Source of the DNA: Raillietiella orientalis
Lineage: Eukaryota
NCBI GenBank assembly: GCA_036172245.1
Contig: JAYWIR010000075.1
Span: 1 to 64,000, forward strand
Length of the DNA: 64,000 nt
Direction: 5' to 3'
In this document: positions 737 to 57,172 of the stretch, one piece after another
Layout: each line of letters begins with the position of its first letter
Numbering within the stretch: position 1 is the first letter of the stretch
Notes under the pieces: generated by a model
Database searches by the model: none
What the model was told of the DNA's origin: nothing
The model's input: only the letters and a program-made list of their open reading frames with translations
Program-made: the position numbers and the translations under genes

Positions 737-849
737 GCCGCACGGACCTGTTCTGTGTTGCTCCTCGAGCGTGATTCCTTTCCGTCTTCTTGTGTGAAGT
801 GTGCTCGAGTGCGTCCACTGGAATTTTCACGGAGGCCCTGCAGCAAAAG

Positions 850-32667: not shown

Positions 32668-33379
32668 CAGACTGCATACACTAAACGTAAGCTTTCTTTC
32701 CTCTTATATAAAAGTGATTAAGAGATTTACTTGCATTATATTGGCACAAAAAACAAATCCTGTTTAGAATCTCACGGCGATTTTTCATTTCATGCACTCT
32801 GCATAAGCACCGAAATTCCTATGCCGACCACCAAAGATATGAGATAACGGCGTTTACATGAACAGTTTACGTGAAGTTTTCCTGAACTAGAACGTGGTGT
32901 GTTCCTAAGAAAAACATGGGCTTCTCGACTAAATGTTAACGAACATGCGTGCGAGGCTCTTGACAGGAAAAAAAAAAGAAAGTCTGGGTTCACCACACCT
33001 TCCTGGGAGTGCCTGGCACTTGACTTTTTCAGAACGAACGAGTAGAACTTCCGTGGTTTCAGAAGTACTGAAGCAGTCCGTTTATCTCGCAAGGAAAACC
33101 TTCTCAATGCCACAATCTGAGAGTTAATGTATCGAAACCTAACCGGTGGACGTTAGTTCTGGTTCCTTCTTCGTTCGAGCCTGTTATCTGGAGCACAGCA
33201 TGCATAGGGAACTGGAAACACACCGTACTCGGAAGTGGTGCTCGTACTAATAAGCGGAGAGTTCCTTTCCACACACGTTTTTGTGTTGCAATCACCACAA
33301 CGATTGCTTTTTTTTTTCTTTTTCTTTTTACAGCCTTTCTACAATTCCATTCCCCAGTATTTTCTCGTATTGATGCATC

Positions 33380-33560
33380 GCTTCCTTATGCAAGAAGCTT
33401 TCGCGAGGGAGAAAGCACTGCGCAGTCGCGGGCGTGGCGGGAAAAACTCTGTCGCAGCTCTCCGTTCCACGGGAAAGCTCCGACCACCGTAACTTTCACT
33501 TTTACGAAGCGCACTTCGCGGATTGCTTTCAAACGCAACGATCGGTTTTTATCGTTGCGA
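33380..33560. promoter_or_regulatory. Probable promoter region upstream of LYST (possibly bidirectional)
   Basis: Local CpG/GC-rich patch in AT-rich DNA about 0.8 kb upstream of the LYST ATG; GGGCGTGG GC-box-like and GGCGGGAAA E2F-like words. Confidence 0.35.
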
Positions 33561-34304
33561 TTTAGCTCTTTATTTCCATACGTGGGTGCATCAGACATCA
33601 TTCTTATTTATAAGGATTAGTTATAAAAAAAATTTTATGCACAACTCCTCTTCGTGATGGTTTCAGAAGTCATATTCCATAACAGAAACGGAAAAGCACG
33701 ACCCCCGTCATAGTGACCCAATAGTGTTAATATGAGGAGGAATTATTTCAGCCCTCTAAAAAAAAGTCTACTGGATAACTGAATTTTCGGGAAAAAAACG
33801 AAAACTGATTCACCACTACATTACATGAGATGTGGGAGAGCAGAATGTGAGAACGGAATTTTGTATGTATAAAAGGTCTTTCATCTCTAGATTGGGAGCT
33901 AATCAAACAACTTCACAATCTGAAATCAGATGCTTATTCGTAAAAGTTTTATGCCAGCCATAATCACGCCCCCGCAGGGATCTTTGGCTGCGATTCTGTC
34001 CGCAGAGCTCAAAGTCAGTCGTCTCAAAGTCTTTCAGTTCTGTTCGATAGGTTGAGCATTTACAGGAACGGAAAACGGTTTGATTGCTTGGGACTTATAG
34101 GTAAGGCTGCAATGTTTTGTCAAGTAAAGAACTTTTCAAAAGCAATCCTCCGCTAATTTCTGGTTATTTTTGGTTATTGACAGATGCGTCCACATCTGGC
34201 TCTGCATCCTTTACTCCAATGCAGCTCGTAGAATCTCGGTGATACTTACTCGATGATTAGGGGAGCGCAGGAAGTTTCCGGAAGAATTCCGTGTTGGTTG
34301 TTGT

Positions 34305-36664
34305 TTATTACCCGGTTGCGCCGGGACGTTTATTTATAATATCATCTGGGAACTGTGTCCCCAGGCAAGGGAAACAGAAGAAGGGGAGTAGATTTCCCGG
34401 AACGCAGGCCGAGCACACTGAGAGTTCGAAACGGGAGGGGGTGGGACAATAAATAAAAAAATTGGGTGGGAGGGCGGGGACAGGGGTATGCAGTTTAACC
34501 GTTCCTATTCTCAGAACCGGCGGTGAATGCCGCCGATCTCCGTCCTCACTTCTGCTCCCAGATGTGGCCACCCGGCAGCCATTGGCAGGTTGCAGGCTGC
34601 GGTGTCGGGGACCGATGTTGGGACCGCTCGCATCTGCAATACGTGGTGGGCCCTGACAATGGCGCGGACGCAGCAGATGCTTGCGACGACCGCTCCAAGA
34701 GAAAGACCGCCACGCGTGTAGAAGCGGCGCATCCAATCCAGTGCGGTGTGTTCAGGGTGCAGGAGCGCTGAAGACAGCTGCCGCCACAGCTCCTGGAGGG
34801 CACCGCACTCAAACAGAAAATGCGGAAGCGATTCCATCGCTCCGCATTGAGCACAGTTCGGGGAAGCAACTCCCCCGGAAATCAGGTGCGCCTACTGGTT
34901 GCAGTACAAATCCCAATGCACCAGCAGAAAAGCGTCCTGTTTCCTCCGAAGGGGAAACACAGTCGCGTCCAAGCACGCAGAAGGGACCACAAGTTCTTCG
35001 ATGGGCACCCCGAGGAGCTCGCTCAACCGGAAAAGTCCCTTGGCATGAAGGCGAGGCGTGGCAGCGTCTGCCAGCTCGCAAGTCCTCCAGCCGCCCAGAA
35101 GTCGGGTTTCGCCTGCGATTTCGCAAGCGACCTCCCAACTCGCCGGCAGGTCAGTGTCGTCTCGCACCATCAATGCAGACAGTGCTAGGGGCGTGGCGGC
35201 TAGGCGTGTCCACTGGTCCTGGTCTTCAAGCACCTCCCTCACTGGACAGTATGGGGAAAGTTTCACGCAACGGAGTTCCAAACGGGACACATCCTGTTGC
35301 GCTGCCCAGAACGATAAGGCTTCCTGCCTCCAGGCGTTGAAGTTCGTCGGCCGGCAGGAGATTCACTCATGCTTTCCCAGAAGCGTGGCGAGCTGCTTCA
35401 AAGGGAAGCCGAATCCTCTCTGGGCGCGTTCCGTGCGCAGATGCAACGAACATAGTCCGTCGCCACCCGTGCAGCGCCGCAGCAGCAGCCGCGCTGGAGC
35501 ACACCAGGGAGTAGTCCAGAGCTGCGCACAAAGTGCCAGCATGCGGAACTGCACTAGCAGTCCGATCCGCTCCAGCGTCAGCATGCCCAATCCTGCATCC
35601 CGCCGAGGAGCCGCCAAGTCCTTCAGGCGTATCCTGGACCTCGCCGGTCCCCACAGGGCGTTACGCAAAAGGCGTTGCGCCCGGCGCTTAGCCGAGTAGG
35701 GAGGGGGACAAACAAAAAAGAGGGGACGGAGGAGGGGGGCAACGAAAATGTTCCACACGAAGGCCCGTTTCGACAGGAGAAACCTGCCGCCTTGGAACGG
35801 TCCCAGAGCAGTCTCGGCCTTGTGAAGGCAGTCCGACCACGCTTATGCTGGACAGAAGGCGCCCAAGGGAACGCCGAGGTACTTTAAGCACCTGCCCGTG
35901 GGGATCCCCAGGCGGATCCAGTCGGACTGCCCTCCCACGTAGAGCCAACCGGTACAACGGTTGATTTCCTTCTGTTGACGCCCAGGCCCGCTCCCCGACG
36001 AATGAGCTCGAGGAAGTCTTCGAGCCTGGACGCCGGGATGGACATGGGCAGCAGCAGGAGAAGGTCGTCAGCATAGGCGGCCACGGCTGGAGTTCCCGGA
36101 CAGAAGCTCGGCAGGTTGGACAGCGTCAGCCTGTACGCCCTCAGCACCAACTCAAAGAAGATGCTGAAGAGCAGGGGGCTTAAGCTGTCTCCCTGCCTGA
36201 TATTCCGCCGTATGGGGACGCCGTACACGTGGCACACGCTGGAAGAGATACAGCATAACGCGTGGCGCCAGCAGGAGCGCAAGTAGGCGATGAGGTGCGT
36301 CGGGAGGCCTAGGCGTCCCAGAAGCTCCAGAAGGAGGTCCTGGTTTACGCTGTCGAACGCTTTGCAGAGATCGACGGCGACCGCTTAGGCTCCCGGCGTT
36401 CCATCGTGCCTTGAACTTCGCCGCTTACCTTTGGCAGCGGCGATTTAGGCTGCCTGGCTCTGCTGCGCCACGCGCTGCTGCAACTCGAACCATGTTCGCG
36501 CGAAGAAGAGATTCGCGTCCATGGACCGCCCCGGAACAGCATACTTATGCTCCGGATTTACCAAGGACTCCGCGATTCTCTCCAGCCGCGCGACCCATAG
36601 CTTCGAGAACAACTTGACGTCCGAATTCACCAAGGTGATCGGACGCCAGTTGCTGAGGTGGCGC
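34305..36664 (-). mobile_element. 5'-truncated LINE family E copy (E2)
   Basis: Highly similar to 4166-6531, sharing some lesions such as the LYCNQ-stop; 3' hairpin at 34311-34325. Confidence 0.95.
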
Positions 36665-36705
36665 CGTCGTCGAACGCATTCCCGATGTTGCCGAACGCTG
36701 CCAGA
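36665..36705 (+). mobile_element. 41-bp piece of family A ORF1 at the 5' junction of E2
   Basis: 40/41 identical to 44570-44610 (VVERxPDVAERCQ). Confidence 0.85.
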
Positions 36706-38194
36706 TGTGTAGGCGCATCGGTTTTCGTGGTAGGAAGATTTTCTGGTGGCAGTGTAAGTAAAGTGCTGCAGATTCAGTTTTGGTTTGGAAAATGGGATGT
36801 GAACCCGCTGAATGTGCGAATCCTGCAGTCGTGGCGCAGTCAGGCATCGAAGCGTACTACTAGTTGTGGACGGAAAATGTTTGAAGGTTAAAAGAAAGTA
36901 CGATTAGCACTGTGATGGGAGTGGCAAAGTAAGTACTTGAGTATGCGTTTCAGTTGTTGGGTAAATCGGGGAACCCTCGAGTATCCCACTTCTTGTTATT
37001 CGTGTAATTGACTTGGAATAAACGATGCACATGTGGGAATCCTTGATCAATCAGCTGGATTGCTGATCTGGTTAAGTTTAAATGGACACTCCCTTATCTG
37101 AAATGCTGCTTTCTTTCAGAGTCCGGAAAAGTAATGGAGTTTGGAATGAATAATTTTCAAAGTCAATGTTTAGTCTCATAGCACCAGTTGGTATGATGGA
37201 AATTCTAGACGGAAGAGTAAACGGATAGGAAAAGAAGAGATGACTCAGATAGAATGGTTATTTTAATTGCATCGTTCAGGACGACCTGGGCAGTTAAGCG
37301 TGTTTGGGTTGTGAGACTTTCGAACACTCATTAAAGTGCTGAGAATTCCCGTGTTTTCGTTGATCTGATGTGTTGGCAGAGCATGGCTTGCTGTGTACAG
37401 AGGGTGTGCAGTCCTTAGATGCATATTATGTGGACATGTTGTCTAATCTGCACTTACCTGAGTAGTGTAGTTCATGATTGTTCCTGATCCTTTGACAGAA
37501 GTAGAACTGCGTTTTTGCACTGGTCTCTGGAAAATGTCACATCACATCCTCAAAATGAAATGCCAGATGCTGTTGTCTTGAAGAGAGCATTCACCTGCAA
37601 AATGCTCCAGTATGAGAGAAGCTTGCAACAGTTAGAAGAAATGTGGGTGCTGTAGGCATTAGGTTTTGGTTTTGAACTTTTCATGTGGAAGTTTATTGAA
37701 CAGTTTTTGTGTTTGCTTTTATCAAAGTATGCAATTTATAATGTAAATTACTCAGTGTGGTAGATCACTTTTGATTGATAAGGAAGTGCACTGCATGCAG
37801 CATATTGTACCATGATGTCTGTTGGCTGAGGGTGACAAGAGGAAGGTGAGAATTGATGACTGGTTGCAGGAGTTCTTGCAGCAGAGGACTGCTGTATGAT
37901 GAATTATCTATAATATAGATAATTCTACGTGGTAATTTCCTGTCAGGATCAGAGGGGACGTGGGAATTGATGTATTGATTCGAGTATTTTGTTTGAAATC
38001 CCACAGCTTGGTATGTATGGAAAGTTCATAGGAGTTGGTATCCTTGCATGCACTTAATCTGCATTCTGTATTTAGTCTAATGATGCATAATAATGTTGTG
38101 GTTCACTCAAGCCCTGAAGGAGTATTGACAGAAAGATGTGATCGATTGCTCAATACTGGCTTTGCTTTTTCTAGCCTGAATATAAGAATTTAAG

Positions 38195-38425
38195 CGTAAG
38201 CCGAGACTGCAGGCGTACAGGGACAATCGCACGGCAGGTGCGCCAGAGTCTCCCTGTACGCTCTCAGCACCAATTCGACAGAGGCTCTGAAGAACAAGCG
38301 GCTCAGGCTGTGTCCCTGCCGTATGCCGCGTCGCACCAGTACGCCGTGTACGGTATGCCCGCTGAAAAAACGTTACTAACGCGCCACAGCAGCCGTCCAG
38401 CTGAGATCGGTTCGATCTCCCGGGC
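38195..38425 (-). mobile_element. Degraded RT fragment (X), outermost visible layer of the right cluster
   Basis: Reads GIRQGHSLSRL..ELVLRAYRETLAHLP..TPAVSAYA on the minus strand. Confidence 0.75.
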
Positions 38426-38430
38426 TCGTA

Positions 38431-41314
38431 CAGTGCAGACGTGTTTTCCCGTCTCTCCATGCCCGCGATCGAGCATCTTTGTGCCTGCGTTTTCGCCCGC
38501 ACTTTTGTGTTTCTGTGAAGTAGTTAAAGCAGCGTTGTGCAACATGGCCAATTCTCAGAATAGTGTGGAGGAGCAAGCCACTAAATCCACTTCCAATGGA
38601 CTGGAAGCGGCCGCATCCTCCGTGACGGTTTCCTCGCCTTCGGTGAGGAGCTACGCCGCCGTTACCTCCCAAAGACCAGGACCCTGCGATGCGGAGTTGC
38701 AGGCTTATGTGGCATCCGGCTACATGCCCGCACTCCGTTATAAGGTCAGTGGGCCCCTTAACGGGAGGACCGGGCGTGAGCTCAACGATGAGCTCGTCCG
38801 GATCGGCGTTCGGGAGGAGGAGCTCCTTGCCATCATGCCTGCGGGCAGGATGGAATACACAAAGATACGGTGCAAAAACGCGGCACTTGTGCAGCGTCTT
38901 CGTACTCCGTTGTCCATCGGTGGCAAGGAAGTCCTGCCTTCCGTGATGGACGACTCGTTTGTCGTCCAATTGTGCGACATCGAGCCGGAAATCTCCGACC
39001 GCGATGTCGCAAGCTGCTGGCGAAGTTCGCCACCGTGCACGCTCTGTGGAAGACACCAAATTCTCTAAGGGATTTCCCCTCTGTCTACATTGGACAAGCC
39101 TCCGCGCGGATCACCGTCGCGAACAGGCGTGTTGTGCCTGAGCAGCTGCAGGTGAACGGCACAGTCGTTCACCTGTGGTTCATAGGCCAGACTCGCGCGT
39201 GCGAGCAGTGCGGCAAGGAAGGGCCAAGAATTAAGGAATGTCCCACCCCGAAATGCCGCTACTGCAAAGAAACCGAGCACGAAATCAAAAAGTACCCGGT
39301 ACTTGCGAAAAAAAGGGCAGCAGCGGAACTTCGTCGAGTCCAAGAGACCGAAGCACGAAAAGCCGCTGCACCCAAGAAAAAACCCGGTTCGCGGAGACTT
39401 GGCAGAAGAGCCAAGCAATACGCGACTAGGAAGCAAGCATTCCTGCTCGTAACGCTCCGAAAGGGCGAGATCACGGCAGGGAAGCCAATTAAAAAAGGGC
39501 GCGAATGTGCGACGCTTGTCATCCCCGCCGTCGCTGCCGAACTCGGGAGCACCTCCGAGACGAGAGTCAGAAAATCTCTGGAAAAACCTAGACCAAAAGG
39601 TAGGCAAGCAGGAAGATCGCAACAGGGCGAGCACTTCCTGAGCCATTCCGTTGTTCCTCCAGAGTTCCCCAGAGCCCCAATGTAATTCAGGGCCCTCTGC
39701 GAAGGCTACAAACGCCGTAAAATGCAGCGGCGCATTGCGCAAGAGCACTCTGCAGGCAGTCGCCCCAACGCCGACTCGGAAGCAACTGAGCAATCTCTCG
39801 ACTGCCAAGAAGGTGAATCCGTTGCAGTCTTTCGAAGGCGTAACGAAAGCAACGCCCTAGAGGCTGCAATGGAAACCGCGGAGGTTTCCGCGACTTCTGA
39901 CACGGAAGCCTCCGAAAATCGTGAAGGCTAATGGAAGGTTGTGGAGAGGAGAAAAGAAAAATTTCCAAACAAAGGTTCGCAATCTCCATCCCTGAGTCCT
40001 TCCAAGGCAAAGAACAGTCGTGTGAATAGAAAAACACGCGCGGCGGGTCCCTCTGTCTTGCATAAAGCCAGCGCCGTCGACGCGTGCAAGTCCGCCTCCG
40101 TAACCGCCGAACAGACGCGATCAGGTGGAAGCAGACGCACGATGATCGCGCGAGCATCAGACTCCGTAAAGGAGTCCGATAACGCAGCTGAACGACGCGT
40201 TACTCGCGCCGGAGCCAGCGCCCGCAGGGCTGAAGCCCTCAGGCGTGGCACACTCGCGGTGGAACGGCTAGTGCTAACCCTCGAACCAACAGGTTCTGCA
40301 CCCGGGGAGGAGCACTCAATTACGCGCAGCACGGTGGAGGCCGGTGCCGACCGCACCCTCCAGCCCGTCGTGCTGCTTACTGCCCGCTCGCCGGGTGAGA
40401 CGAGCACCACGGCCTTGCTTTCCCAGCCGTGATGAGGCAATCGCGTCTTCTCGTCGTGTTGCCGTGGCGTGCTGGAACGTCAACGGTCTCCAACACGACG
40501 AGAAGAGGCGACTAGGGGCTAACGCTCTCAACGCCTTCGACTTGACGCTCCTGCAGGAGATTCACAGCATCTCCGACGAGCAGGCTGCGAGATCGAACGG
40601 CGCGCGGGCGGAAGGCTACATTATAGGTGCAGCGTCGCACGTACGTGTGGCGTCGCTTTCCTCGTACGAGGAACTTTGGTGGGAGCGGTGCGCAGAGTTA
40701 GCTTCGACACGGAAGGCCGAGTGGGACAGCTTGTACGCAAGTGGTTCGACTCGATCGACCTTGTCGTAACGAACGTGTACACGCCGAGCGGCGCTGGGCA
40801 ATGGGCAGAAAGGATTGAGTTCCTCGGTACCGTTCGGAGCCAGTGGCTCACTCGTTCTCACTCTACTGTGGCGTATCTCATTGCGCGGGACTTTAACGTC
40901 CATCTGCTGACCGAGAATAGCGCACACAAAAGGGAAAAGTTGCTAGCGGAAGAGATGTGCGCGTCCGTGCACGCGTGCCACTTGTTCGCTAACGACCCTG
41001 ATATGGCGACGTCGCCGGACCATGTTTTCCTTGATGAACACTTGCACTGTCGAGTGAGTCGGAGAGGTCCCATGCCGTGCGTGCTTTCCGAACATAGCAG
41101 GCTCGAGTTTGAGTTGCTCCTTCCAGGCAAGGGGCCTTCAAACTGTGTATGGAGGATGCCGGCAGACTGGCTTAGCCGCCCGCAGGCAACGGAGCATTTT
41201 CGCCAGTACCTCCGCGGGTTCGCCACAGGTGTACTCTCGGACTAAGACGATCTGGAAAGATCGGTCAGCGAGTTCTGCTGCCGCTTTCCCTTGCACCAGC
41301 TTCCGCGAGGCTTT
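38431..41314 (+). mobile_element. LINE family D, 5' end, ORF1 (ATG 38544, disrupted) and endonuclease part of ORF2
   Basis: AGACGTGTTTT at 38437; RSYAAV; CEQCGKEG; TGATG at 40430; WNVNGL; cut by B' at about 41315. Confidence 0.88.
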
Positions 41315-43416
41315 ATAGTTGTCACATGGGTACGCCCGGGGTGTTTATTTGTAAAAACTCTACATCCGCGGTACGAGGCCCCGTTCACGGTCATAGGCAC
41401 AGGACCTGCCGGGACGCCGGGACGCAGCCCGGCGTGGCACTCCACGGCAGCGAAAGGGGATGGCGGAAAAACAAAAAGAAAATTAAAAATAAACAAACAA
41501 AAAGAAGTTGGAGGGCAGGGAAGGGATCACTGCTCGCTGTGAGGAGGGCCCATCCGTTGAACGAAGCCCTCGAGGTCCATCCGTATATTCCCCAGTTGGG
41601 GCCATCCGACAGCTCTCTGCATGGAGCGTTGAGCATATGGGATGGCATCCCTCGCGTGTGGATCCACTCCTTTGTTGTTGGTGTCGCTCCAGGCAGCCAC
41701 GATGCCTCGGACGCAGCACAGGGCTGCGATGGCTGCGGCTGGCTGCAGTGCGTCCTTCACAAAGAGGGACCGGAGAACGTCTCTGGGGGTACTGCCCGTA
41801 GGGAGATCGAGGGTCGTCCCGAACCGTTCCCAAAGGAAACGGAGAGCAGCACAGTCCGCAATAAGGTGGAAGAACGATTCCCGCTCTCCGCACCTGGCAC
41901 ACTTAGGATCCACAGCTCCCCTTGTCCTGTGGAAGCGGCGTGCGTTGCAGGGTAAACCCCAATGCAACAGCAGCAACGCCGACTTTTGCCACTTAAGGGC
42001 CAGGATCCTGAATTCTCTTAAAACCGGGGGCTACTTCAGCTCATCCATCGGGATGGCAAGCAGCTCGCCCCATCTCTGCAATCCTCACAGCTATACGCTC
42101 GGGATCGTGGCGTCCGCCAGTTCTCCTGTAGTCCAGCCGCTCAGCAACTTCTCACGTCCCGCGATGCAGCAGGAGACCTGCCACAATGGCGTTTGGCTGC
42201 TGTGAAGTGCCCTCCTCAGGAAGGGCAGCGCAGTAGCTAGACAGGTCGTCTCTGCCCACTTGCTTCTAGCGGGACTCTCGAGAAGATTCCGCAGCGTGCA
42301 ACGGGCGTGGTAGCTGCATCGGAGACGATTCCACGACTCTTGGCTCCGCTGGTTCACAACAGCCCAGGTGCCGATATTCTCTTCCAGCCAGGCGGAGAAG
42401 TTGGCGGGGCTGCAAACCATTAAGCTCTTCTCCTTCGCCAGGGTTACCATGCGCCCGAGCAGTAGGAAGCATCCTCTGATCATCCGGCGTGGGTACAGAA
42501 GAAAAGACGCGAGTCCATCGCACCGAGACAAACGGATGGCAAGGAGTCGGGCCGGAACGTACTAAGGGATGCTCCACATCTTCGCTGCGATGGCGAGGGT
42601 TCGCCATCGCAGCTGAATCTCCAAGCGCTCCAGCGTCAGGAGGCTGAGACCGCCGTCCCGATGCGGAGCGCACAAATCCATGAAACGGACTCGGGGTCTC
42701 CCGTTGCCCCAAAGAGCGATACGGAGGAGGTCCTTTGTTCGCTTTTTTATCCTCTCTGTGGGGGGGGAAACAAAAAGCAGGGGGCGGAGGAGAGGAGCCG
42801 CGAACGTGTTCCAAACCGCGGCCCGTTCAGGCAGGAAAAGCCTGCCGCCTCGCAACGGGCCGATCGCCGTCTCTACTTTTTGAAGGCAGCCGGACCACGC
42901 TTCCGCAGGGGAGTAGTCCCCAAACGGCACACTAAGATACTTGAAGTACCTAACCGTGGGGATTTCCAAACGGACCCAGTCCTCCTGCCCTGCCCATGTC
43001 ACACCAACTGGCACCACCAACGACTTCGCCTCGTTCTCCTGTAGTCCGGCGTCAAGGCTAAGCAGGTCGAAGAAATCTCCGACCGCCTTCGCCGGGGTGG
43101 ACATAGGTAAAAGGAGCAGAAGATCGTCAGCATAGGCTGCTACGGCGGGCGTGCAGCGGCACAAGCTCGGCAAGGGGGCCAAAGTCACCCTATACGCTCT
43201 CAGCACAAACTCAAAGTAGGTGCCAAAGAGCAGGGGACTCAGGCTATCGCCCTGCCTTATGCCTCGCTGCAACGACACACAATACAACATTCGACTGCAG
43301 AAAGAGATGCAGATAATCGCGTTCCTCCAGCAAGGTAGGTGATCAAGGAGGGTGGGAAGCCCATGCGAATAAGGATCTCAAAGAGGAGTTTCTGGTCACC
43401 GCAGTCGAACGCCTTG
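41315..43416 (-). mobile_element. LINE family B-like copy B', 3' half of ORF2 and 3' UTR
   Basis: C-terminus very similar to 59577-60308; begins at the KAFDC motif where A1 is joined. Confidence 0.9.
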
Positions 43417-43440
43417 CGTGCGCCAGGGTGGACGTGTTTT
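43401..43440 (+). promoter_or_regulatory. Inr/DPE-like core promoter spanning the A1 junction (also 47538-47573, 7746-7711, 48932-48967, 560-525)
   Basis: GCA(+1)GTC with A at 43403 and GGACGTG starting at 43430, i.e. +28. Confidence 0.6.
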
Positions 43441-45443
43441 CTCGGTGCTCCTCGTGCCAGGAAATCTCCCCCAGTACAAGCGTCGTGTGGTTCGGTGGTA
43501 GATCAGGCGGCGATGCCTGACGCAACCACCAGGGATGGCCAGAGAACAGCGGCAACGCCGCCCCCAGAGGCGATGGAGGTGGGGGCATCCGCCCCCACAG
43601 AATCAATCCCCGCTGCAGCGCGGGCGTGGAGCGCCGTTGTGTCGGCGCCATCGCCTACAGCCGCGGCGGAATTGTCGGCCTATGTAGAGGAGGGCTACAA
43701 CCCCTCATTGTTCTACAAGGTAGGCAATCTATATTCTTTAGAGAGCGCGCGCGCCTTCTAAAAGGGCATGCACGCTCTCGATGTGAAAGAGGAGGAGCTC
43801 AGCGCTATGATCATTCGCAGCAGGGGTCAGTACGTTGAGGTCATCTGCAAACAAGCAGAGCTGGCCCAACGACTGCTTAAAACCCCCGTTGTGATGGGGA
43901 CCCGCAGGCTCCTCCCCACTACGGCGGACCGCAGCATTGTGGTCCACCTGTTAGGCGTAACCGCGCGAATGCGCAAAGAACAGGTTCGCGCCGCTCTGGA
44001 ACAGTTTGGAACCGTCCACGCGCAGTGGACGAAAGTTAGTCCTTTCGAGGACTACACGGAGCTGCAACACGGCCTCACGGCTGCGCGCGTGACCGTTCGG
44101 GAGGGCTGCACCCTACCCCACAAACTGGTGGTCGAAGGCGAAACCGTCGACCTCTGGTATGTGGGGAAGCCGAAATACTGCGGCTTCTGCAATACGTCGG
44201 GCCACCTCAAAAAGAGGTGCCCAACGTGCAGTGCCAAGTATGCGGCACAATGGGTCACACGAGGGAGGTGTGCCCAAAAGCAGCAGTGCGGGTGGTTTCC
44301 AAGAGAAACCTTAAAAAACGCGCCCGGCTGCTGCAGAAAAAGCTGGCGGCGGAAGCTGCCGCGAAGGCTGTGCCACCCGCGCCCAAGGCCCAGGCCGCAC
44401 CCGAGACTTCAGCGAACAACGCCGAACAAGTAGAGGGAACTAGCCAGGAGCCTGGGTGGTAGGTGGCTACGGCCAAAAAATCAAAGAAGTAGAGGAGATT
44501 GGAGAAAAAAATCGCCTACCAACAGAACAAGAAAGAGCAGGGTAGCACGATAATTAAAGAGTACAGCGTCGTCGTCGAACGCGTTCCCGATGTTGCCGAA
44601 CGCTGCCAGAAAGAACTCGCCCCTACCGACGACCTCCCCTCTGTTGACTTTGTCAACAGCGAGGGGAGCGAGCCGGCGGCGGCGTCCGTCATCGACACCA
44701 CCATCGATGACGTAGCCTTCGCGCGAGCTGCGGAGGAACTGGCAGCCTCGTTGCAGCCAGAACCCTCCAAGGCTGGCAAGAAGGCCGTAAGGCGTCCGGC
44801 CTCCCCTCAAGAGTCTCCCACTTCCGACTCCGAGGTAGAGACCGGAAGCGCAGCCTCCGTTTCCACGGCACCGCGCAAGAAGGCTGGACGTAATTCCACA
44901 AAGCAAAGGAGGTTCGTCTCCCCCGTCGAAGGGGAAGAGATGGCTTCCGCAAGCGAGGGTGCCATGAGCGTGGGAAACTATCAAGACCCGTCGCTCGAGA
45001 GACTCCCAAGCGCGGACACGGAAGGGATGCAAGGGGTGGAGGCCGATCAGTGCCTCAGGTGCCTGAGAAGGCCTACACCTTCATGGACATCCCGCCCGCC
45101 TCGCAAGAGACGGGCACCCCCACACCTTAATCTTCCCAGCAGTAATGCCGAAAATCTCCTTCTGCCGTCGTCTGCGCATCGCCGTTTGAAACGTGAACGG
45201 CATGACAGACGCCAGCAGGAGACGAGACATGGCCGCCCTTCTGGAGTCCTACGACCTTGCGCTGCTGCAGGAGATCCACGTGATCTCTGCAGAACAAGCG
45301 CAAGAGATCGAACGGATCTCCGAAGGGCGGCTGTGGTACAGGTGTGGGAGACCGAAAAGTTGCGGTGTCGCCTACCTACTTCGGCCAGCCGTCGAGGCTG
45401 CGGCTAGGGGCGTGCGGTTCGACGATTACGGTCGTGTCGGCCA
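43417..45443 (+). mobile_element. LINE family A copy A1, ORF1 (ATG 43513, disrupted) and start of ORF2
   Basis: GGACGTG at 43430; CCHC knuckle; TAATG at 45143; carries empty B and E target sites. Confidence 0.92.
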
Positions 45444-47553
45444 TTTACACCCGGATGTGCCGGGGCATTTATTTCTTTGAAATAAAAATACATGAAATGT
45501 CGCGTGGCGAACGCGAAGGTTCACCACTCCAAAACAGCTTGCTGGTTACCGGGTCAATGCCGGAAAGGTAAATTCCATGCGCGGGTATGGGAAATAAAGA
45601 AAAACTTAAAGAAACAAAAAGTTCAAATGTGGGTGGGGAACAAATGTGGTAGGGGTGGGAGGGCAAGGAAGGGATCACGGTGCGCGTGGACAGGTCCTCT
45701 AGATCCTGTTCAGGTTCCGCACAAGCTGAGTCCTTTCAGCGCCCAAGTGGCGCCACTTGCAGAGACTGCGCGCGAAAAGGCGAGTCCAGTGTAAGGCGTT
45801 GCCGGTTGGCTGACGCCTTCTTCTGGTGGCGTTACAACCCGCAACTATTCCTCTGATGCAGCAGAGGACTGCTACACTAGCTGGCGGGGACAAGGCGTCA
45901 CTACAGAAAAGGCGCCATAAAACGTCCTTTGGGACGCATCCGCGCAAGTCCAGGATAGCCGCGAGACGATCCCAGAAAAAGCGGACGGCTCTGCACTCAA
46001 GGAGAAGGTGCGAGAATGTTTCTTTTTCCCCACACCGGTCACAATTAGGATCCACAGCCCCCCGGGTGGTGTGGTGCAGGCGTGCTTTGAATGGTAATCC
46101 CCAGAGTACCACAATCAACGCCACATCCTGCCATTCCAAGGGGAGGGATGCACTGTTCCAGGACGCTGGGTGCCACTTCATCTTTTCCGGAGATAGTCCG
46201 AGTAGCTCGCCCCAGCGTCCAATTCCGTTGGGCGGGACACTCGGCGTCGCAGCGTCAGCTAGCTGCCGAGATATCCACGCCTTTATCGATTGTGTGCTGC
46301 CGCCTCTGGCGCAGGACACGGTCCATTTCCCCTGCTCGCTACTGTCCCTGGCATTCACAAGGAAGGGCAGCACTGGGGCGAGATGGGTTATCAAGGCCCA
46401 CAGAAGCTTGTCGTGGGACTGCACGATCTCCTGCAGCGTCCAGCGGGCGTGCCTTTTCATACACGTGTTCCTTGTGCCCTCCGGAACGTGGATCTTTCCC
46501 CAGGTGGAGACTCACTCGTGCAACCAGGCAGAGTAGTTCCCTGGGAGGCAGGAGATCCAGGCATTCTTCCGAACCGCAACGAAGATGCGTCGCAGCATAG
46601 AGCCACAGTGTGCTCTTCTGCAGATGCGCGCAGACAGAAACGACAAAGTCCGCCGGATCCTCAGGCTCGTTGGGCCAGGAGTCGTGCTGGGATGCACCAG
46701 GGCGTGTCTCACATTTCTGCCGCGAGGGCGAGAGTCCTAAACTGTAGTTGCACTCCCATGCGCTTCAGCGTAAGAACGCCAATTCCACCGTCCTCACGTG
46801 GAGCGCACAAGTCTTTGAGCATCACACGGGACCTCTTTTTGCCCCAAAGGACTGGCATCTGGAGGCCCGCTGCTCGTTTCCGAATAAAATAAGGGGCGGG
46901 CAAACAAAAAGTAGGGGACGGAGGAGGGAGGCCGCAAACGCGTTCCACACCGCGGCCCGTTTCTGCAAGTAGAACTTGCCTTCTTGGAACGGACCGATCG
47001 CCAACGCTGCCTTTTGGAGACGGTCGGACCAGGCTTCTGATGCGCAGAAGTCCCCCAAAGGAACGCCAAGGTAATTGAAGCACCTGCCCGTTGGGATCCC
47101 CAAGCGGATCCAGTCCAACCTCCAACCCATGCCGAACCGACAAAGACCATGGACGACTTCGCCCTGTTCACCTCCAGGCCCGTCCCGCGGCGCAGAAACT
47201 CGAAGTCCTCGAACGCACTCGCCGGGGTGGACTGGGGAAGCAGGAGCAGAAGATCGTCGGCATAGGCCGACACGGCAGGCGTGCCGGGACACGAGCTCGG
47301 CAGGGTTGCCAAAGTCTCCCTGTATGCTCTCAGCACCAACTCAAAGTAGATGTTGAAGAGCAGGGGGCTGAGGCTGCCACCCTGCCGGATGCCACGACGA
47401 ACCGGCACGCCGAACACGTGCCGGCCGCTGAAATTAATATTGATGAACGCGAAATGCCAGCAGGAGCGCAGGTAGGACTGGAGCACGGCCGGGAAACCCA
47501 TGCGTTCCAGGAGCTCCAAAAGGAGTTCCTGGTCGACGCAGTCGAAAGCTTTA
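45444..47553 (-). mobile_element. LINE family F, 3' half of ORF2 and 3' UTR
   Basis: QGGSLSP, YADD, CDRC..H...C; 3' hairpin at 45450-45464; begins at KAFDC where A2 is joined. Confidence 0.9.
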
Positions 47554-48947
47554 CGTCGGCTAGAGCGGACGTGTTTCCTCGGTGCTCCTCGTGCCGGGAA
47601 CCGTCCCTAGGTGTAGGCTTCGTGTGTGGTGGTGGTCGATCAGGCAGCAATGTTTGACACGACCACCAGTGCGTGTCAGGGGGCGGTAGCAACGTCGCCT
47701 CCTAAAGAAATGGAGTGCCAGGAGGCGGCGGCAACGTCGCCTTCAGTGGCGAAGGAGGTGGGGGAGTCCGCCCCCACAATACCGGTCCCCGCTGCAGCGC
47801 GGGCGTGGAGCGCCGTCGTGTCGGCGCCATCGCCTGCAGCCGCGGCGGAATTATCTGCCTATGTGGAAGAGGGGTATAACCCATCACTATTCTACAAGGT
47901 AGGAAATTTGTATTCTTCTGAGAGTGCGCGCGCCTTTTCGAAGGGGATGCGCGCTCTCGATGTTAAAGAGGAGGAGCTCTGCGCTATGACCATTCGTAGC
48001 GGGGGGCAGTACGTAGAGGTGATCTGCAAGCATGCAGATCTGGCCCAACGTCTGCTTAAAACCCCCGTGGTAATGGGGACACGCAGGCTCCTTCCCGTTA
48101 CGGCGGACCACAGTATGGTGGTCCACCTTTTAGGAGTTACCGCGCGGATGCGGAAAGAACAGTTACGCGCCGCGTTGGGAAAAGAAGGCACGGTCCATGC
48201 AGTATGGACCAAGCCTAGTCCTTTCGAGGACATTACCACAGTTCAGTGCGGCCTCACGGCTGCTTGTGTAACCGTTCAAGAGGGCTCTATCCTTCCCCAC
48301 AAACTGGTGGTCGGCGGAGAAAGCGTCGACCTCTGGTACGTGGGGAAGCCCAAATACTGTGGCTTCTGCAACACGTCGGGACACCTCAAAAGGAGGTGCC
48401 CCAACGTACAGTGCCTGGTATGTGGGACAATGGGCCACACGAGGGAAGTGTGTCCACAATCCGCTGTGCGCGTGGTTTCCGCAAGGAACCTAAAAAAACG
48501 CGCGCGGCTGCTACAGAAAAGGCTGGCGGCGAAGGCTGCCGCTCAAGCTGTGCCACCCACTCCCGTGGTCCAGGCCTCAGCCGACACCCTGGCAACGAAT
48601 GCCGAAAAGATCGACAAAAGCGGTCAGGTGTCGGAATGGCAAGAAGCCACAGCGAAAAAGAAAAAAAAGTCGAAGAAAGAACGACGAATTGAAAAAAAGC
48701 TCGCCTACCAAAATAAAAAACAGCAGGTTAGCGAGAATTTAAAAGAATGCAGCGTCGTCGTGGAACGCGTCCCCGCCGAACGCCGCAAGGTAGAAATCGC
48801 TGCTACCGACGAGCAACCCACTGTTGAAAATGTCAACAGCGTGGGGAGCGAACCGGCGGAAGCGTCCGTCATCGAGACCGTGATCGATGACGCCGCCTTC
48901 GAGCGTGCGGCGGAGAGCTGGCTGCATCGTTGCAGCCAGCCCCCTCC
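47554..48947 (+). mobile_element. LINE family A copy A2, left part (ORF1 from ATG 47650)
   Basis: Open ORF with two CCHC knuckles; resumes at about 60527. Confidence 0.92.
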
Positions 48948-51265
48948 GCGGCCAGTAGGAGGACGTGTTTTTCCTTCACTCCCCAAAGAGTAGTAGGACA
49001 GCGCTTTTTCTTCTGTGTGGTGTTTTGTGTACATCGTCGGTGTCCAATGGCCACGACGCCAGAGGACACCGCGATGGAGGTGGGAGTGGGGGAGGCTAGT
49101 TCTCCCCCACAGCCTACTGGAGCAGGGGCAGCCGCCCCGGAATCATCCCCGGCCACGCCGAGGACATGGAGCGCCATGGTGGCCGCGCCCAGCGCAGAAG
49201 CCATGGCGGAGATGGCCGCATACAAGGCCTCCGGGTACAAGCCGTCGCTTGTGTACCAGGTAGGCAACTTGTTCGACGGCCGGACAGCGCGCGCCTTCAG
49301 CAAAGCGTTGAAGGACGCGAATGTTACAGAGAAGGATCTGGACGGCCTCTCCGTCCTCAGCGGCGGGCAGCGGGTCGAGGTGGTCTGCAAAGATGTCACC
49401 TTGGCTCACCGCCTAATTCATGCGCCGCTGAACGTAGACGGCCGCAAGATCCTGCCAGTATCTATGGACCGCTCCGTGGTGGTCCACATGACTGGCATCA
49501 CCAGCCGCATGACGCGGTCAGCGGTTGGTGAGGAATTACGGAAGTACGGTGAGGTGCACGCACTGTGGCCGAAACCCTCCATTTTCGACGGCTTCGATAG
49601 CCTTTTTGGTGGGCAGGCTGCAGCGCGGGTCACCGTACGGGAGAATTGTGGGCTTCCCCACAGACTACAGGTGGCGCAAGAAAACGTCGACCTGTGGTAT
49701 GTAGGGAAGCCCCGGTATTGCGGGCATTGTGATACCGTGGGACACCTACGTAAAAGGTGTCCCAAAATACAATGCCATTTGTGCGGGGAGCGGGGCCACG
49801 TTCGGCGCGTGTGTCCCAAACGCCCCACCCCGGTTCCCCCTGCCGCGAAAAAAGCGCAGGGGACACGTGCTTCAAAGGTCTCTAGACCTAAAGTAGAAAA
49901 GGGCCAGCACAAGCTGCCAACACCTCAACCTCCGGCGCGTAAGCCGGAGGATAAACCTTCTGAAACGGTGGAAGGCGAAGAGGGATGGCAGCTTGTAGAG
50001 GCCCGAAAGCCGAGGAAACTCCCACCCGCGGAGAGCAAAGAGCGCAAGACGGCCGGTAAGCCGAAAAAACCCGGTCCGCGCTCGAAAACTTTGCGCGAGT
50101 GCACGGTGGCACTGGAACGAATCGTCGTTCCCGAGATTGCCACCCGGAGCGTCGATCCTCCCCTTGCCTTTTCCGCTGCGCCCGAGGCTCGCAACGGCGT
50201 ACCCTCTGTTTGCACAGAGGGTGAGCCGCGCGACATAGCGGCGGTCGAAGCCGCGCACGCCGCGTTCGCGCAGGCGGCGGAGGAGCTCGCAGTCACGCTG
50301 GCCGAGCGTGAGAACCCCTCGCGCAAGGCCGTGCGAAGGCCGGCTCCGGCGAGGAAGGCCCCCAAAGGTGAGTTAGACCTGGGGGCCGGAAGCACATCCT
50401 CCTCCTCGGAGGCACCCCCCAGAAAGTCGGGACGCAAGTCCCAGAAGCCCAGGAGGCGCCTCCCCTCCACCAGCGAGGAGGAGAAGACGGAAGCCGTCGC
50501 CAGCGTGGGAAATTCGGAGGAGGAATTCCCACGCTCGGAAGCCGTCGATGCGGCCACCCCCATGGAGGAGGGTGAACAGGGGATGAAGTCCCCCCTGCAG
50601 GCGCCGACCCTGAACAGCCCGCCCCCATGGAGGAGGGCGAACAGGTAGGCGCGACTCCACCTGCGGGTGATCCGGCCGACGCGCCGGCACCGATGGTGGA
50701 GGGGGACCAGGTGCCTTCAGCACCTGACCCCCCTGCTCCACCTAGCGTCCCGCCCCAGCAGGTGGCGGACGCCGCACTGCCATCTTCCCAGGAGTAACAC
50801 CTGGGCTCGCCAGTCGCCGTCGGATTCGCGCGGCCTGTTGGAATGTCAACGGGCTGCGCGACGACGGTCACAGGCGAGATACAGCCGACACCCTGCGGGA
50901 GTTCGACCTGGCCCTGTTGCAGGAGATCCACGTGATCACCGCGGCAGACGTCCAGGAGATCGAGACGATCGCGGGGGGTCGGCTGTACTGGCAATGCGGC
51001 ATCCGCAACACCTGCGGGGTCGCGTTCTTCGTGAAGCCGGCCATCGACGCTGCCGTGAAGGGCGTGCGCGTCGATGACGACGGTCGGGTCGGTCAGCTGA
51101 CTCTCGGCTGGTCGGACTCGATCGATCTGATCGTCACGAATGTGTACGCCCCAACCGGTCAAAAGGGATACAGCAACCGTACCAGGCTGCTTGAATCCTT
51201 GAAGCGCGACTGGCTGGCGAACACGAGCGTGCGGAAGGCTCACCTGATAGCGGGAGATTTCAATC
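48948..51265 (+). mobile_element. LINE family B full-length copy, left part (ORF1 ATG 49047; endonuclease up to GDFN)
   Basis: GGACGTG at 48961; CGHC..GH..C and CHLC..GH..C knuckles; resumes at 57173. Confidence 0.92.
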
Positions 51266-51342
51266 GAGTGCGGACGTGTTTTCTTCGCTCTCGTCTCCGT
51301 GCTTTCATCCGCTTCATCTTGGCGTCGTACATTTTGACGACG

Positions 51343-53266
51343 ATGTCGACCCAACTTGAAGCTACTGAAGTTGGAGGAACAGCATCCGGATCTGCAATCG
51401 CGGAACCGACGGCCGCCTCCACTTCGTCTTTCTCGCCAATGGAGAGGAGTTTTGCTGACGTTGCTGCCACAGCAGCCGTCAAAGGGAAACCACTCGACGA
51501 GTCGGAGGTGCGGGCATACGTAGCCCAAGGCTATAGACCTGCTCTCCGATATAAGGTGAGTGGTTTTCTTTCTGCGCGCGACGGGAATCAGTTCAACGAT
51601 GAACTGACGCGTGTTGGCGTGCGGGAGGAGGACCTTCTCGCCATTATGCCCGTAAAAGACATGGGCTATTTCAAGGTGCGTTGCAAAGACGCTGCACTTG
51701 TGCAACGTTTGCTGCGCACCCCGTTGTCGATCCGTGGCCAGAAGGTCTTCCCGGCCGCCATGGACGACTCATTTGTGGCGGAGATTTTCGACATCGAGTC
51801 GGAAATCTCCGATTTTGATATTCGGAACGCGTTGGCGAAATTCGCCACGGTCCATGCGCTGTGGAGGGTGCGTAGCAACCTCAAGGACTTCCCGTCCATA
51901 CACAGCGGAGTCGCTGGAGTCCGGCTTACAATGCCGGACCGCCGTCTGCTGCCCACCAAACTACAGGTGAATGACACGGTCGTTCACCTGTGGTTCGTGG
52001 GCAAAGTAAAAACGTGCGAGCAATGCGGGAAGGAGGGGCATTGTTTGGATAAATGCCCCTCTGGAAAATGCCGTTATTGCAAACTATCCGGGCACCAATT
52101 GAAAAATTGCCCGGATCTTTTGCGAAAAAAGGCAACCGCGGAGCTCCATTTTAAAAAACAAAGCGCGGATAAAAAGAAAAAATCTGCGAAAAACCTGGAG
52201 ACCCCACGGCAGAAATTCGGTAAAAACGCGAGGCGGAATGTCGCCCCAAAGCAGCAGGAAACCTCGCACGCGAAGCCCTGCGCACCCCCTCTCGCGGCAG
52301 GGGAGCCGCAAAAGAAAGGGTGCGGGGAATCCGGGGCAATGGTAAGTCCCCCTAGGCGCAATAGCTGTCCTTCCCCAGCACGCCCGGCTCTCTCGGAGTT
52401 CGAGCAACCGGCGGGGACGTCAATGGACAACGGCGGTAAGGACACTTCCAGTACCGTCAGATCCATTCCTTCACCTCCTGCAGTGGCTGAGAAGCCCAAA
52501 TCGGGTAAGAAGGGTTGTGCCGTGTCGACTTCGAAAGTCGGCAAAAAAAAAATCCGCGTCGCGATCCAACACCGCGAAAGCGGACAAAAATCTCACGCCG
52601 TCGCAGTCGGAGAGCAAGCTCTCGACTGGCGCGGATGCCATGCCAACGAAGGGATTAAAAGCCCTTCCGAAAGCAGCGTCCATGACGAGCGTGTCGGAGC
52701 CATCGAAAGGGCTCCCGTCCAAAGACGCGGATGGCTTCAAAGATGGCCATGGAGTACAATCTCCATTTACGGCGCCACGCGAAGTGAGGAACCGTAATGA
52801 AGTAAAGAAGACTTCAGCAAAGGTCCCTCGTGCAACTGCGCGTGAGCACGCTGAAAACGCGCGCGCCGGGAAAGCAGCCGTCACCAAAAGCGATGCCCTG
52901 GTGACGGAAAACGAAAACAGGACAGCTGTCAATCCAGCAGAACCTGTCACTGCTTCGCGGAAGGCCGAAATCCGATCGAACATGCGCCGGTCGGACTCCG
53001 AAATGGATGCCGTTCCGATCACCGAGACGAGGACAACTCGTTCGAAAGCGTGTGCGCGCCGATCAAAAGTAGGCAGCCAGGCAACGCTCGCCGCGAAGCA
53101 ACGCGAAGTCTCCACGAAACCCGACGGGGTTCAGCCTGGCGTGGAGGCATTACATGCATGCAGCACGACAGAGGACGGTGGCGACTGTCCCCTCCAGCCA
53201 GTCGTGCTGCTCGCAGTCTGCTCGCCGGATAAAGCGAGCAAAAAGCCGCCACCTTCCCAGCAGTAA
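51343..53266 (+). CDS. Family C ORF1 (two CCHC knuckles), with one +1 frameshift probably at the A10 run 52543-52552
   Basis: CEQCGKEGHCLDKC and CRYCKLSGHQLKNC; the downstream frame ends at the TAATG overlap. Confidence 0.82.
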
Positions 53267-56200
53267 TGCGGGGAATCGCGTCTTCTCGTCGTCTGTCCGT
53301 AACGTGTTGGAACGTGAACGGACTGCAGAACGACGAGAAGAGGAGATTAGTAGCCAACGCCCTGCGCCCCTTCGACCTCGCGCTCCTGCAGGAGATTCAC
53401 GTAATCTCCGACGAGCCGGCAGCCGAAATCGAGGAGCGCGCAGGCGGAACGCTACATTGGCGGTGCGGCGGCGCACACACGTGCGGCGTCGCGTTCCTCG
53501 TAAGAGGAAAAATGGCGGAAGCGGTGCGTAGTGTTCGTTTCGATGACAACGGACGGATAGGCCAGCTTGTCATCAAGTGGTCCGAGTCCATCGATCTCGT
53601 CGTTACGAACGTCTACGCGCCGAGTGGCTCTCGCTACCTCGAAGACAGAGTAGCTTTCTTTGGTGAGGTGCAGAGCCACTGGCTCAACAACTCCGGTTTC
53701 CAAGTGGCGCACCTCGTCGCTGGGGACTTCAACGTCCGCCTGCTCTCCGACGATTGGAGCCGCCCGAGGAAGCGCGCGCTGCCCATCGAGATGTGCGCGT
53801 CCGTGCACGCCGCCAACTTGATGGTCAGCGAACCTGGAATGGAAAGATCGCTCGATCACGTTTTCCTCGATGAAAACCTGCATTCGCGTGTGGGCAGGAG
53901 AGGAAGATTGTTGACTAGGCTTTCTGACCACCACAGGTTGGAGTTTGAGATCCTTCCGCCAGGCAGGGGGCCTCCGTTGCAAAACTGGAGGATGCAGGCG
54001 GATTGGCTTAGCCAACCGGAGGCTGCGGAGCATCTACGTGGATACCTCCGAGGCTTTGCCATTCAAGAACTTGCGGACTGGGACGATCTCAAAAGATCAG
54101 TCCGCGAGTTCTGCTGCCAATTCCCCTTGCACCGGCTTCCACGCGGTTTCGGAGAGGGCGTGGCCAACAGTAGAGACTTTCTGCAGGCCCGCACGTTTTC
54201 GAGACGCGCGGATGTCGGGCGTCTCGCAGAGTACAAGGCGAGGGCCGAGCGCCAGGTCTGGCAGTCCGGAGCAGCATGCCTGTTGGACGACAAAGGCCAG
54301 GAATGTTCGGCCCCAGCCGAAGTACGCCGCATTGTGAGACGCTACTACTCCTCGCTCTACGCGGATTCCCCGACGGAGGATATTCTTTCTGAGATACTCC
54401 TGTCTCAGGATGCTCGTGTTGTCGGCGAGGAGGACCGCGAACGTCTCGACGAGCCCTTCACGGCGGATGAATTTTCGTCCGCCATCGCTGGGCTGAAGAG
54501 ACGAAAGGCGCCAGGCGAGGATGGGCTCCCTGCAGAGTTTTATCAGTGCTTTGCAGTGGAGCTCATTCCTTTGATGCTGATACTCGCGACGCTGATGAGT
54601 GAATCCGGGAATGTCCCTGATTCCTTCCGCTCAGCGAAGGTGCGTCTCCTGCCGAAAGGCGGAGACTTGCGCCAACTTAACAACTGGCGTCCGATCACCT
54701 TGGTGAACTCGGACGTCAAGTTGTTTTCCAAGCTGTGGGTCGCGCGGCTAGGAAGAATCGCGGAATCTGTGGTGAGCCCGGAACAAACCTACGCGATTCC
54801 GGGACGATCCATGGAGGCGAACATCCTTTTCGCGCGTACATGGATGCAGCTGCAGGAAGTTGTGGCGCAGCAAAGCCAGGCTGCTGCGAAAGTCACTGCC
54901 GCAGGCAAAAAGAACAGGCGCCGACGGCAGGAGGGAACGCCAGGTGCCTTGGCGGTTGCGGTCGATCTCCACAAGGCGTTCGACTGCGTAAACCAGAAGC
55001 TGCTTTTGGAGCTTATGGAACGCCTTGGGTTCCCGGCGCAACTCCTGCTGTATTTGCGCGCGTGCTGGCGCCACGCGCTAACCTGCATCACTTTTAGCGG
55101 CTGCCGCGTGTATGGTATTCCCGTTCGTAGGGGCATCCGACAGGGCGACAGCTTAAGCCCGTTGCTCTTCAGCATCTTCTTTGAGTTGGTGCTAAGAGCA
55201 TACAGGCTGACGCTGTCTCACTTGCCAAGCTCCTGCCCGGGAACGCCTGCCGTGGCCGCCTACGCTGATGACCTGCTTCTTCTGCTCCCCATGTCCACCC
55301 CGGCGTCCAGTGTCGAGGATTTCTTCGACCTGATTCGTCGGGGAGCTGGCGTGAGCGTGAACAGAGAGAAGAGCGTGGTCGTTCCTGTGGGTACGTCGTG
55401 GGAGGGGCAGTCCGACTGGATCCGCCTGGGGATCCCCACGGGCGGGTACTTTAAGTACCTCGGCGTTCCGTTGGGCGCTTTCGGCGCAGCCGAAGCGTGG
55501 GCGGACTGTCTTCAGAAAGCAGAGTTGGCCATCAGCCCGTTCTTTAACGGCAAGTTTACCTTGCAGGAACGGGCGACTATTTGGAACACCTTTGTGGCCC
55601 CTCTCCTCCGTCCCCTGTTTTTTGTTTTGGACCCCCCCTATGCGGCAAAACAGCGGGCTAAGCGCCTGCTCAGGAACGCTCTCTGGGGTCCGGCGAGATC
55701 CAGGATCCGCCTTAAAGATTTGTCAGCTCCGCGTCGGGATGCTGGTTTGGGTATCCTGACAATGGAGCGAATCGGACTGCAGGTGCAGTTCCGACTGCTG
55801 GCACTGTGTGCCCAGCTATGGACATCCCCCCTGTGTGTGCCAGCTCGCATTCTCCTGCGGAGATGCGCCGGCAGCGGAGGATTTCTCTCGCTTTTGCCGG
55901 GCACTCAATACAGGAAGCGGGGTTTCGGATTTCCATTGCGGCAGTTGACCGCACTTCTGGAAGCACACTCTTGGATCTCCTGCCGCCCAATGAACTTTGA
56001 AGCTTGGCGGCAGGAGTCTGTTGAATCCTGGGCGGCGTTCCAAGGAATACGCCCTGAAGATCTTCGCCCCCTGCGCCAATTTTTTCCACGATCCTTGGAA
56101 GAAGTACTGCGGGACGAGGTGAAGTTTTCTACCCTGGCTGCCACGCCTCTTGCCGCAGCGCTGTCTGCCCTCAGAGCAAGAAACGACAGTTACCAACCGG

Positions 56201-56859: not shown

Positions 56860-57142
56860 TCATTGCCCTACCCTCCATAAACTAAATTTGTATTTTCTTT
56901 TTACACCCGCGTCCCCATAGGCTCCGGAACATTTGAGGTGCTCATCGTTTAAATCCCCGTGAGTACGGAGCCTAGCCAAAAACCCTTTTCCCTTCCCTCC
57001 AGTTTTTGATTTTTGTTTGTTTCCCCTCATTCCCCCCACGCTGCGAGCGGTTTGTTTACCAGGCCTGCGTGGCGGTAATTTTTCTATGTTCTCTGTCGTT
57101 CTGTTGGTTGGGGACATTGTCCCTGACCAGTTTATTATTATT

Positions 57143-57170
57143 AATAAACGCCCCGGCGTGACCGGGTGAT
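57143..57170 (+). other. Conserved LINE 3'-terminal signal AATAAA-CG-C-CCCGG-N5-CCGGG-TG
   Basis: Found at seven element ends in the window (one degraded). Confidence 0.85.
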
Positions 57171-57172
57171 AA

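Follow-up and report, generated by a model that had tools for sequence, protein, structure and literature searches.

Full-length 5′ ends of one LINE family adjoin the same base of reverse transcriptase codons in three other LINEs of Raillietiella orientalis

In the first 64,000 nucleotides of contig JAYWIR010000075.1 of Raillietiella orientalis (assembly GCA_036172245.1, forward strand; hereafter the window), we found that a family of long interspersed nuclear elements (LINEs), here called A, starts at one and the same base of other LINEs in all three copies whose 5′ end is present. The A 5′ ends lie at 43417 (+), 47554 (+) and 7730 (-), and each adjoins the antisense of the reverse transcriptase (RT) codons K-A-F-D-C. 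An earlier reading of the letters alone (the original prediction) had placed three joint strings here, and all of them were found at its coordinates. A common base and orientation in elements of ~6 kb, together with a jump in identity at the joint, exceed what chance would give. Targeted insertion is the most economical reading, and we put at roughly 0.6 the probability that A is an autonomous LINE with an endonuclease of the apurinic/apyrimidinic (APE) type whose integration into other LINEs is sequence-specific and antisense, at the boundary of their VDLH and KAFD codons. Nearly all of the evidence is the window itself, complemented by an independent contig set (run X1) that covers 0.10 of words, whose uncovered parts are uninformative and whose joints quoted below are among the matches listed.

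Read in the direction of A, antisense D-C-F-A-K codons are followed by 13 nt of A and then by GGACGTGTTT. The junction lies after CCTTG (CTTTA in the second copy), and continues with CGTG(C/T)(G/T)CCAGGGT or CGTCGGCTAGAGC before GGACGTGTTT is reached. In the host sense the target reads GTC GAT CTC CA/C AAG GCG TTC GAC TG, where the slash marks the cut with an uncertainty of ~1 nt, and the base adjoining the joint fits the third base of the host His codon in 3/3 copies. The cut falls three codons past the catalytic Asp of the host RT motif, which we take to be motif A, and between two 9-nt blocks, GTCGATCTC and GCGTTCGAC, that are invariant in B, C and D, three other LINE families of the window. 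Base and orientation are fixed in all three A 5′ ends across three RT lineages, in what is a small sample from one window. In a search for further full-length A ends, the expected 5′ flank is one that ends in ...GTCGAANGCNTT(G/A).

A scan of the window for CAGTCGAACGCCTT with up to three substitutions returned 17 matches, eight of which are real RT KAFD sites. A occupies three of these eight, in hosts that we call B′, F and H, and the other five are intact: B (58414-58427), C (54973-54986), D (4466-4479), a young copy of D (36350-36363) and a divergent LINE, J (13469-13482). The empty sites that had been predicted in C and B were confirmed in this way. In the occupied host B′, the flank matches B at 26 of 34 positions. 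Run X1 offers one more view of such a joint, as one of its contigs joins the A 5′ region (47567) to a KAFD site of the B type (58414) on opposite strands, with 0 shared letters.

The 5′ ends of A can be taken as true full-length ends because their first 13 nt can be aligned to those immediately before GGACGTG in B, whose own 5′ end is fixed by a target-site duplication (TSD). The motif GGACGTGTTTTC stands 13 nt inside A, the same as in B. Across the LINEs of the window it lies 6-13 nt from the first base, and seven of its nine matches are element 5′ ends; the window holds seven full-length 5′ ends from at least four families. We also considered whether the first 20 nt of A are diverged host sequence, and rejected this since they can be aligned to B's own 5′ end.

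The three copies of A differ in what has become of them since. A1 (43417 to ~45445, plus strand) has a full-length 5′ end, a 5′ untranslated region (UTR), a frameshifted open reading frame 1 (ORF1) and ORF2 to ~aa 112, where the 3′ tail of F cuts its right end; it carries no B insertion, and its empty B site lies at 44763-44772. A2, also on the plus strand, is in two parts: 47554-48947, with the 5′ end, the 5′ UTR and an ORF1 that is open from 47650 and reaches the B insertion, and 60527 to ~62362, with the end of ORF1 and ORF2 from aa 1 to ~498. This stretch of ORF2 contains the APE endonuclease and one stop, and the 3′ tail of another B-related element, B″, truncates it. A3, on the minus strand, runs from the 5′ end to ~position 1159 of A (6532-7730), where D interrupts it, and continues at 545-736 to the B insertion site. 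The span first drawn for A was too short, as A1 reaches ~45445 and A2 comprises both of its parts. The accompanying family map was right about the empty KAFD site in B and wrong about B as drawn, which is the 3′ part of a full-length element within A2. As B is an insertion into A2, the invasion goes both ways: A is hosted by RTs of the B type, and is in turn invaded by B.

ORF1 of A carries two CCHC knuckles. ORF2 of A2 matches Exo_endo_phos at 30.3 bits (cut-off 24.5), showing that A encodes an APE-type endonuclease. ORF2 of A aligns with that of C at aa 8-498, and the RT core of A itself lies beyond the window.

The hosts are three different LINEs. B′ (41311-43416, minus strand) is related to B and extends from its own 3′ end (hairpin motif 41346-41323) to its KAFDC codons (43402-43416), where A1 begins. 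F (45443-47553, minus strand) extends from its own 3′ end (motif 45470-45448), which sits within ORF2 of A1, to its KAFDC codons (47539-47553), where A2 begins. H (7731-10650, plus strand) carries an RT related to C and D, from K-A-A-D-C codons (7731-7745) toward the 3′ region, and is rearranged between ~8223 and 9056. B′ and F keep complete 3′ ends with the family hairpin motif, and their outer sites differ, one lying in a C-like element and the other in A1, as expected of ordinary older insertions that were split later.

Identity changes abruptly at the joints. A1 and A3 are 95.5% identical over the first 400 nt of A and 93.4% over ~1150 nt, compared with 68.3% in the 400-nt flank. For A1 and A2 the values are 80-81% inside A and 72.8% in the flank, and for A2 and A3 they are 80-82% and 73.2%. 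Host RTs are 68.3-73.5% identical to one another, and the nearest relative of each is an unoccupied full-length element (B′ to B, 83.2%; F to B, 79.0%; H to C, 78.4%). Since the hosts are nearest to intact elements, and a split RT cannot be the parent of an intact B or C, the joining events were separate, and the host lineages must have diverged as active families before each was hit by A. The step at the joint and the relationships of the hosts uphold the earlier statement that three different host families are involved and that no segmental duplication links them. Judged from these sequence relationships, the three joints are independent events.

Several observations weigh against targeted insertion. 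The sample is three copies in one 64-kb window, and the A-to-KAFD joint in run X1 possibly comes from one of these loci. Wherever A2 is one of the pair compared, identity rises only modestly from flank to element (73% compared with 80-82%). Targeting is not saturating, as five intact KAFD sites are unoccupied. The highly conserved RT motif of the original prediction also needs qualification: although the KAFD stretch is conserved, other parts of the ORF2s are more so, with two conserved runs of 15 nt that exceed it. The window contains no A 3′ end, no TSD of A and no upstream half of a host ending at VDLH. All seven element 3′ ends belong to other families, as had been noted before for the missing A end, and orphan RT upstream halves ending at VDLH were not found in the window, where the word beside KAFD occurs solely in intact B, C, D and the young D copy. 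What is seen is therefore joining at the site, and insertion into the site is unproven. Finally, in the nest on the right six levels open (K, C-like, B′, A1, F, A2) and none is closed inside the window; this fits nesting, but serial chimeras would give the same picture. Under nesting, the closing halves of that nest would lie beyond base 64000. The claim that A targets the LINE RT motif thus stands as far as independent, full-length 5′ joints at a fixed base are concerned, and is partly supported as to targeting as such.

The last point brings in an explanation without any targeting, in which each joint is a chimera of two complementary DNAs (cDNAs) made in a single event: the host LINE primes at its 3′ end, A RNA is copied from the other DNA end, and the two products are joined head to head, as in twin priming but with two RNAs. 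Twin priming, as Ostertag and Kazazian reportedly described in 2001, gives a head-to-head layout. The layout of our joints matches (host antisense from an intact 3′ end, then A from base 1), and no level of the host-A-host-A chain closes inside the window. For such chimeras to arise, synthesis of the host cDNA would have had to end at the same single base in all three families. A stall of the RT at KAFD was considered as the cause and rejected, as RNA structure around the site is not unusual and the flanks of KAFD in B, C and D, taken as 120 nt to each side, are no more stably folded than shuffles (z +0.63 to -1.48). Microhomology at the joint is not seen, the joint in run X1 having 0 shared letters, and origin from one RNA is excluded, as A1 and A3 are 93-95% alike and their hosts 68%. 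We consider such two-cDNA chimeras unlikely. The VDLH-KAFD stretch of DNA could also be a recurrent site of breaks or nicks, for example owing to the enzyme of another element or to fragility, at which an A with no specific nuclease was captured. A C-like full-length 5′ end (~38431; 38148-38436) adjoins an antisense RT fragment too. It is oriented like A but lies at a different site, ~50 nt from the KAFD position, which weakly hints that the region may be prone to joining. The exact base, however, has A alone in 3/3 cases, with the 5′ ends of B, C, the C-like element and D elsewhere. Capture at breaks usually yields truncated, untidy joints, whereas those of A are full-length and base-exact, and we hold capture to be distinctly improbable.

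The modest step of the A2 pairs, 7-9 identity points between flank and element, would suit a different history, in which one ancient composite of RT fragment and A was duplicated and its A parts were homogenised by gene conversion, or in which the junction spread by ectopic recombination. Each host, however, groups with a different intact and active-looking family, B′ and F carry their own 3′ ends at differing outer sites, and conversion tracts would have to stop at one and the same base in A1 and A3 to produce the 27-point step between them. This makes a single composite very unlikely. The region is a dense nest of related repeats, in which an assembler might mis-join copies at a short conserved word, but the joint is present three times with different flanks and the conserved word is only 14-16 nt long. 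Run X1 has the A-to-KAFD joint on opposite strands as well as empty forms of the insertions of B in A and of C in B, and an assembly artefact is, in our judgment, very hard to credit.

If A does insert at a chosen site, it would do so by target-primed reverse transcription at the V-D-L-H and K-A-F-D codons, antisense to the host RT gene. Synthesis of cDNA would be primed at a nick that its endonuclease makes in the sense strand of the host, a few bases away from the joint, and the host antisense strand would be cut after ...GAACGCCTTG. Beyond the A 3′ end one would then expect a TSD of 5-9 bp and TGGAGATCGAC..., which is VDLH in antisense. The two nicks would lie close to the boundary between VDLH and KAFD, at most a few bases from it, a scale given by the TSDs of B, C and D (5-9 bp). 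Each insertion would split the host RT three codons beyond the catalytic aspartate, and the host site would offer A a repeated, harmless landing place. A would on this account be a hyperparasite that inactivates its competitors.

Other families of the window may also choose their sites. B begins at one A position in both A2 (48947/48948) and A3 (545/544), between GCAGCCAGNNCCCTCC and AAGGCTGG of A ORF1. The two B copies are 97.0% alike and their A sides 80.1%, and A1, a close relative of A3, is empty there. D lies in A ORF1 around ACGACGACG. A 45-nt piece of A (36661-36705), 95.6% identical to A1 and surrounded by DNA that is not A, adjoins the young D copy, and the junction between them shows GCGC microhomology. 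This tag ends at most ~2 nt from the position of D in A3, so that the parent of the young D copy must have sat at the same A site in another A copy; the young copy looks like a 5′-transduced flank plus an internal jump or deletion. C and the C-like element are at two different sites, and the 3′ ends of B′, B″, F and H are at four different sites. In these small samples (n = 3, 2 and 2), A, B and D, the younger families, each look specific for one site in some other LINE. We raise, as a tentative and on present evidence doubtful extension, that these families form a web of mutual sequence-specific parasitism, with A in the catalytic-motif codons of B-, C- and D-type RTs and B and D at separate sites in A ORF1. 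Each would use and break the others as a safe harbour, building GC-rich nests in an otherwise AT-rich genome.

Three insertions are closed by TSDs inside the window (C in B, B in A2 and D in A3), and these give the 5-9 bp scale used above. Full-length B (48948-60526, plus strand) lies in ORF1 of A2, is flanked by the TSD CCTCC at 48943-48947 and 60527-60531, and contains C. Full-length C (51266-57172, plus strand; TSD ATTTCAATC) is nested in the endonuclease region of B and has an intact ORF2 of 1208 aa. Full-length D (737-6531, plus strand) is antisense in ORF1 of A3, with the TSD ACGACAACG at 728-736 and 6532-6540. Empty forms of B in A and of C in B are carried by contigs of run X1, which join 48947 to 60542 and 51256 to 57173; the latter joint has 9 shared letters, agreeing with the TSD of C. 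The young D copy (34297 to ~36660, minus strand) is 95% identical to D and is without the first 3.4 kb of it. B″ (62363-64000, minus strand) is related to B, enters from its 3′ end in ORF2 of A2 and leaves the window before its KAFD site. The second B copy (544 to 1, minus strand) adjoins the second part of A3 at the same A position as in A2.

C lies innermost in its nest, and its ORF2 (53233-56859), which encodes endonuclease and RT, is open for all 1208 aa. Run X1 contains a 3755-nt contig that matches C at 99%. Going by its sequence, C may be an active element. J (11650-13935, minus strand; ~30% protein identity to C) has a KAFD site that is intact and differs in sequence. A short RT fragment on the plus strand (11557-11652) is cut by the 3′ end of J.

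The LINEs form two GC-rich nests (58-62% GC), from 1 to ~14000 and from ~34300 to 64000, separated by AT-rich DNA (29-38% GC) at 14000-34000. Their ORF1 carries CCHC knuckles, and their ORF2 combines an APE-type endonuclease, an RT and a C-terminal Cys/His motif. At their 3′ ends a short TAAA-like tail without poly(A) comes after a conserved hairpin, AAACGCCCCGGCGTGACCGGGTG. Eleven matches to the 3′-end motif were found in the window, and seven are element ends: D (6505-6531), C (57146-57172), B (60499-60526), B″ (62397-62363), F (45470-45443), B′ (41346-41311) and the young D copy (34331-34297). The hairpin takes the form CCCGG, 5 nt, CCGGG in all families and lies downstream of AATAAAC. That it is shared suggests strict recognition of the 3′ end by the RT. 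The AT-rich stretch holds a 748-aa open frame (29954-32200, minus strand), for which no Pfam family and no relative in a protein database search were found, and a WD40-like fragment (14759-15523, minus strand).

The organism is poorly sampled. A protein search with C ORF2 gave 100 matches at only 21-30% identity, and one with A ORF1 gave a single match at E ≤ 0.001 (P0001, 42% identity; 8000 candidates scored). A protein-guided scan of public DNA with the A ORF1 alignment matched 67 stretches, of which 0 were confirmed, and a 29-nt pattern from the A 5′ UTR matched 0 stretches in metagenome_contigs and 0 in viral_contigs. No Rfam family reached its gathering score anywhere in the window; at the A 5′ end there was only a sub-threshold match to a small nucleolar RNA (27.3 against 47 bits) and no sign of a 5′ ribozyme.

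Should targeting by A hold, selection on its competitors would keep its target constant and their activity would renew it, and every hit would destroy it. Such targeting would make a direct, testable case of competition between retrotransposons and a mechanism for the growth of LINE nests, and the APE-type endonuclease behind it would have a recognition site that is long and defined. Targeting in the window would be reciprocal if B and D are likewise site-specific for A. In full-text literature searches, which leave subscription journals largely outside, we found no description of a LINE aimed at the codons of an RT catalytic motif, or of reciprocal targeting.

Known targets of site-specific LINEs are ribosomal RNA, small nuclear RNA and transfer RNA genes, microsatellites, telomeres and a few transposons. 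Tx1L and Tx2L of Xenopus are APE-type elements of the Tx1 clade that insert at a single site within another transposon, as Tx1L does in Tx1D. A resembles them as an APE-type LINE aimed at a defined sequence within another mobile element, but its target is a set of RT catalytic-motif codons shared across diverged LINE families and is hit in antisense; the likeness drawn here is one of behaviour. Transposons are named among the targets of sequence-specific LINEs and other elements without long terminal repeats (PMC4640811). In the R1 clade, the R1Bm endonuclease cuts both strands of one sequence (PMC1919474), and this is the likely basis of the base-exact junctions that A shares with the APE-type elements R1, TRAS and SART. 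Those elements target multicopy genes or telomeric repeats of their host, whereas A hits other retrotransposons, by a cleavage that is predicted.

Clusters of nested Zepp LINEs in green algae (PMC3446292) also grow by LINE insertion into existing LINE copies, as do the nests described here, with three TSD-closed insertions and further open ones. Zepp arrays, as described there, consist mostly of 5′-truncated 3′ ends of one family, while the window has several families, full-length 5′ ends and a fixed base in a protein motif. Poly(A) of the Zepp or ZeppL type is absent, the 3′ ends being a hairpin with a short A-rich tail. The 5′ inversions that twin priming produces in L1 have a head-to-head arrangement as well, with an inverted 5′ segment and a direct 3′ segment, but both segments come from one RNA, which does not agree with copies of A1 and A3 that are 93-95% alike in hosts of different families at 68%. 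Chimeric U6-L1 retrocopies, which arise by template switching, likewise join two transcripts at the full-length end of one. Their parts are collinear and both in sense, unlike those of our joints, which lie on opposite strands and whose host part ends at its own 3′ terminus. A has its APE-type enzyme, its base-exact joints and its element-in-element habit in common with known LINEs, and what differs is the antisense target in catalytic-motif codons and, possibly, the reciprocity of the attack.

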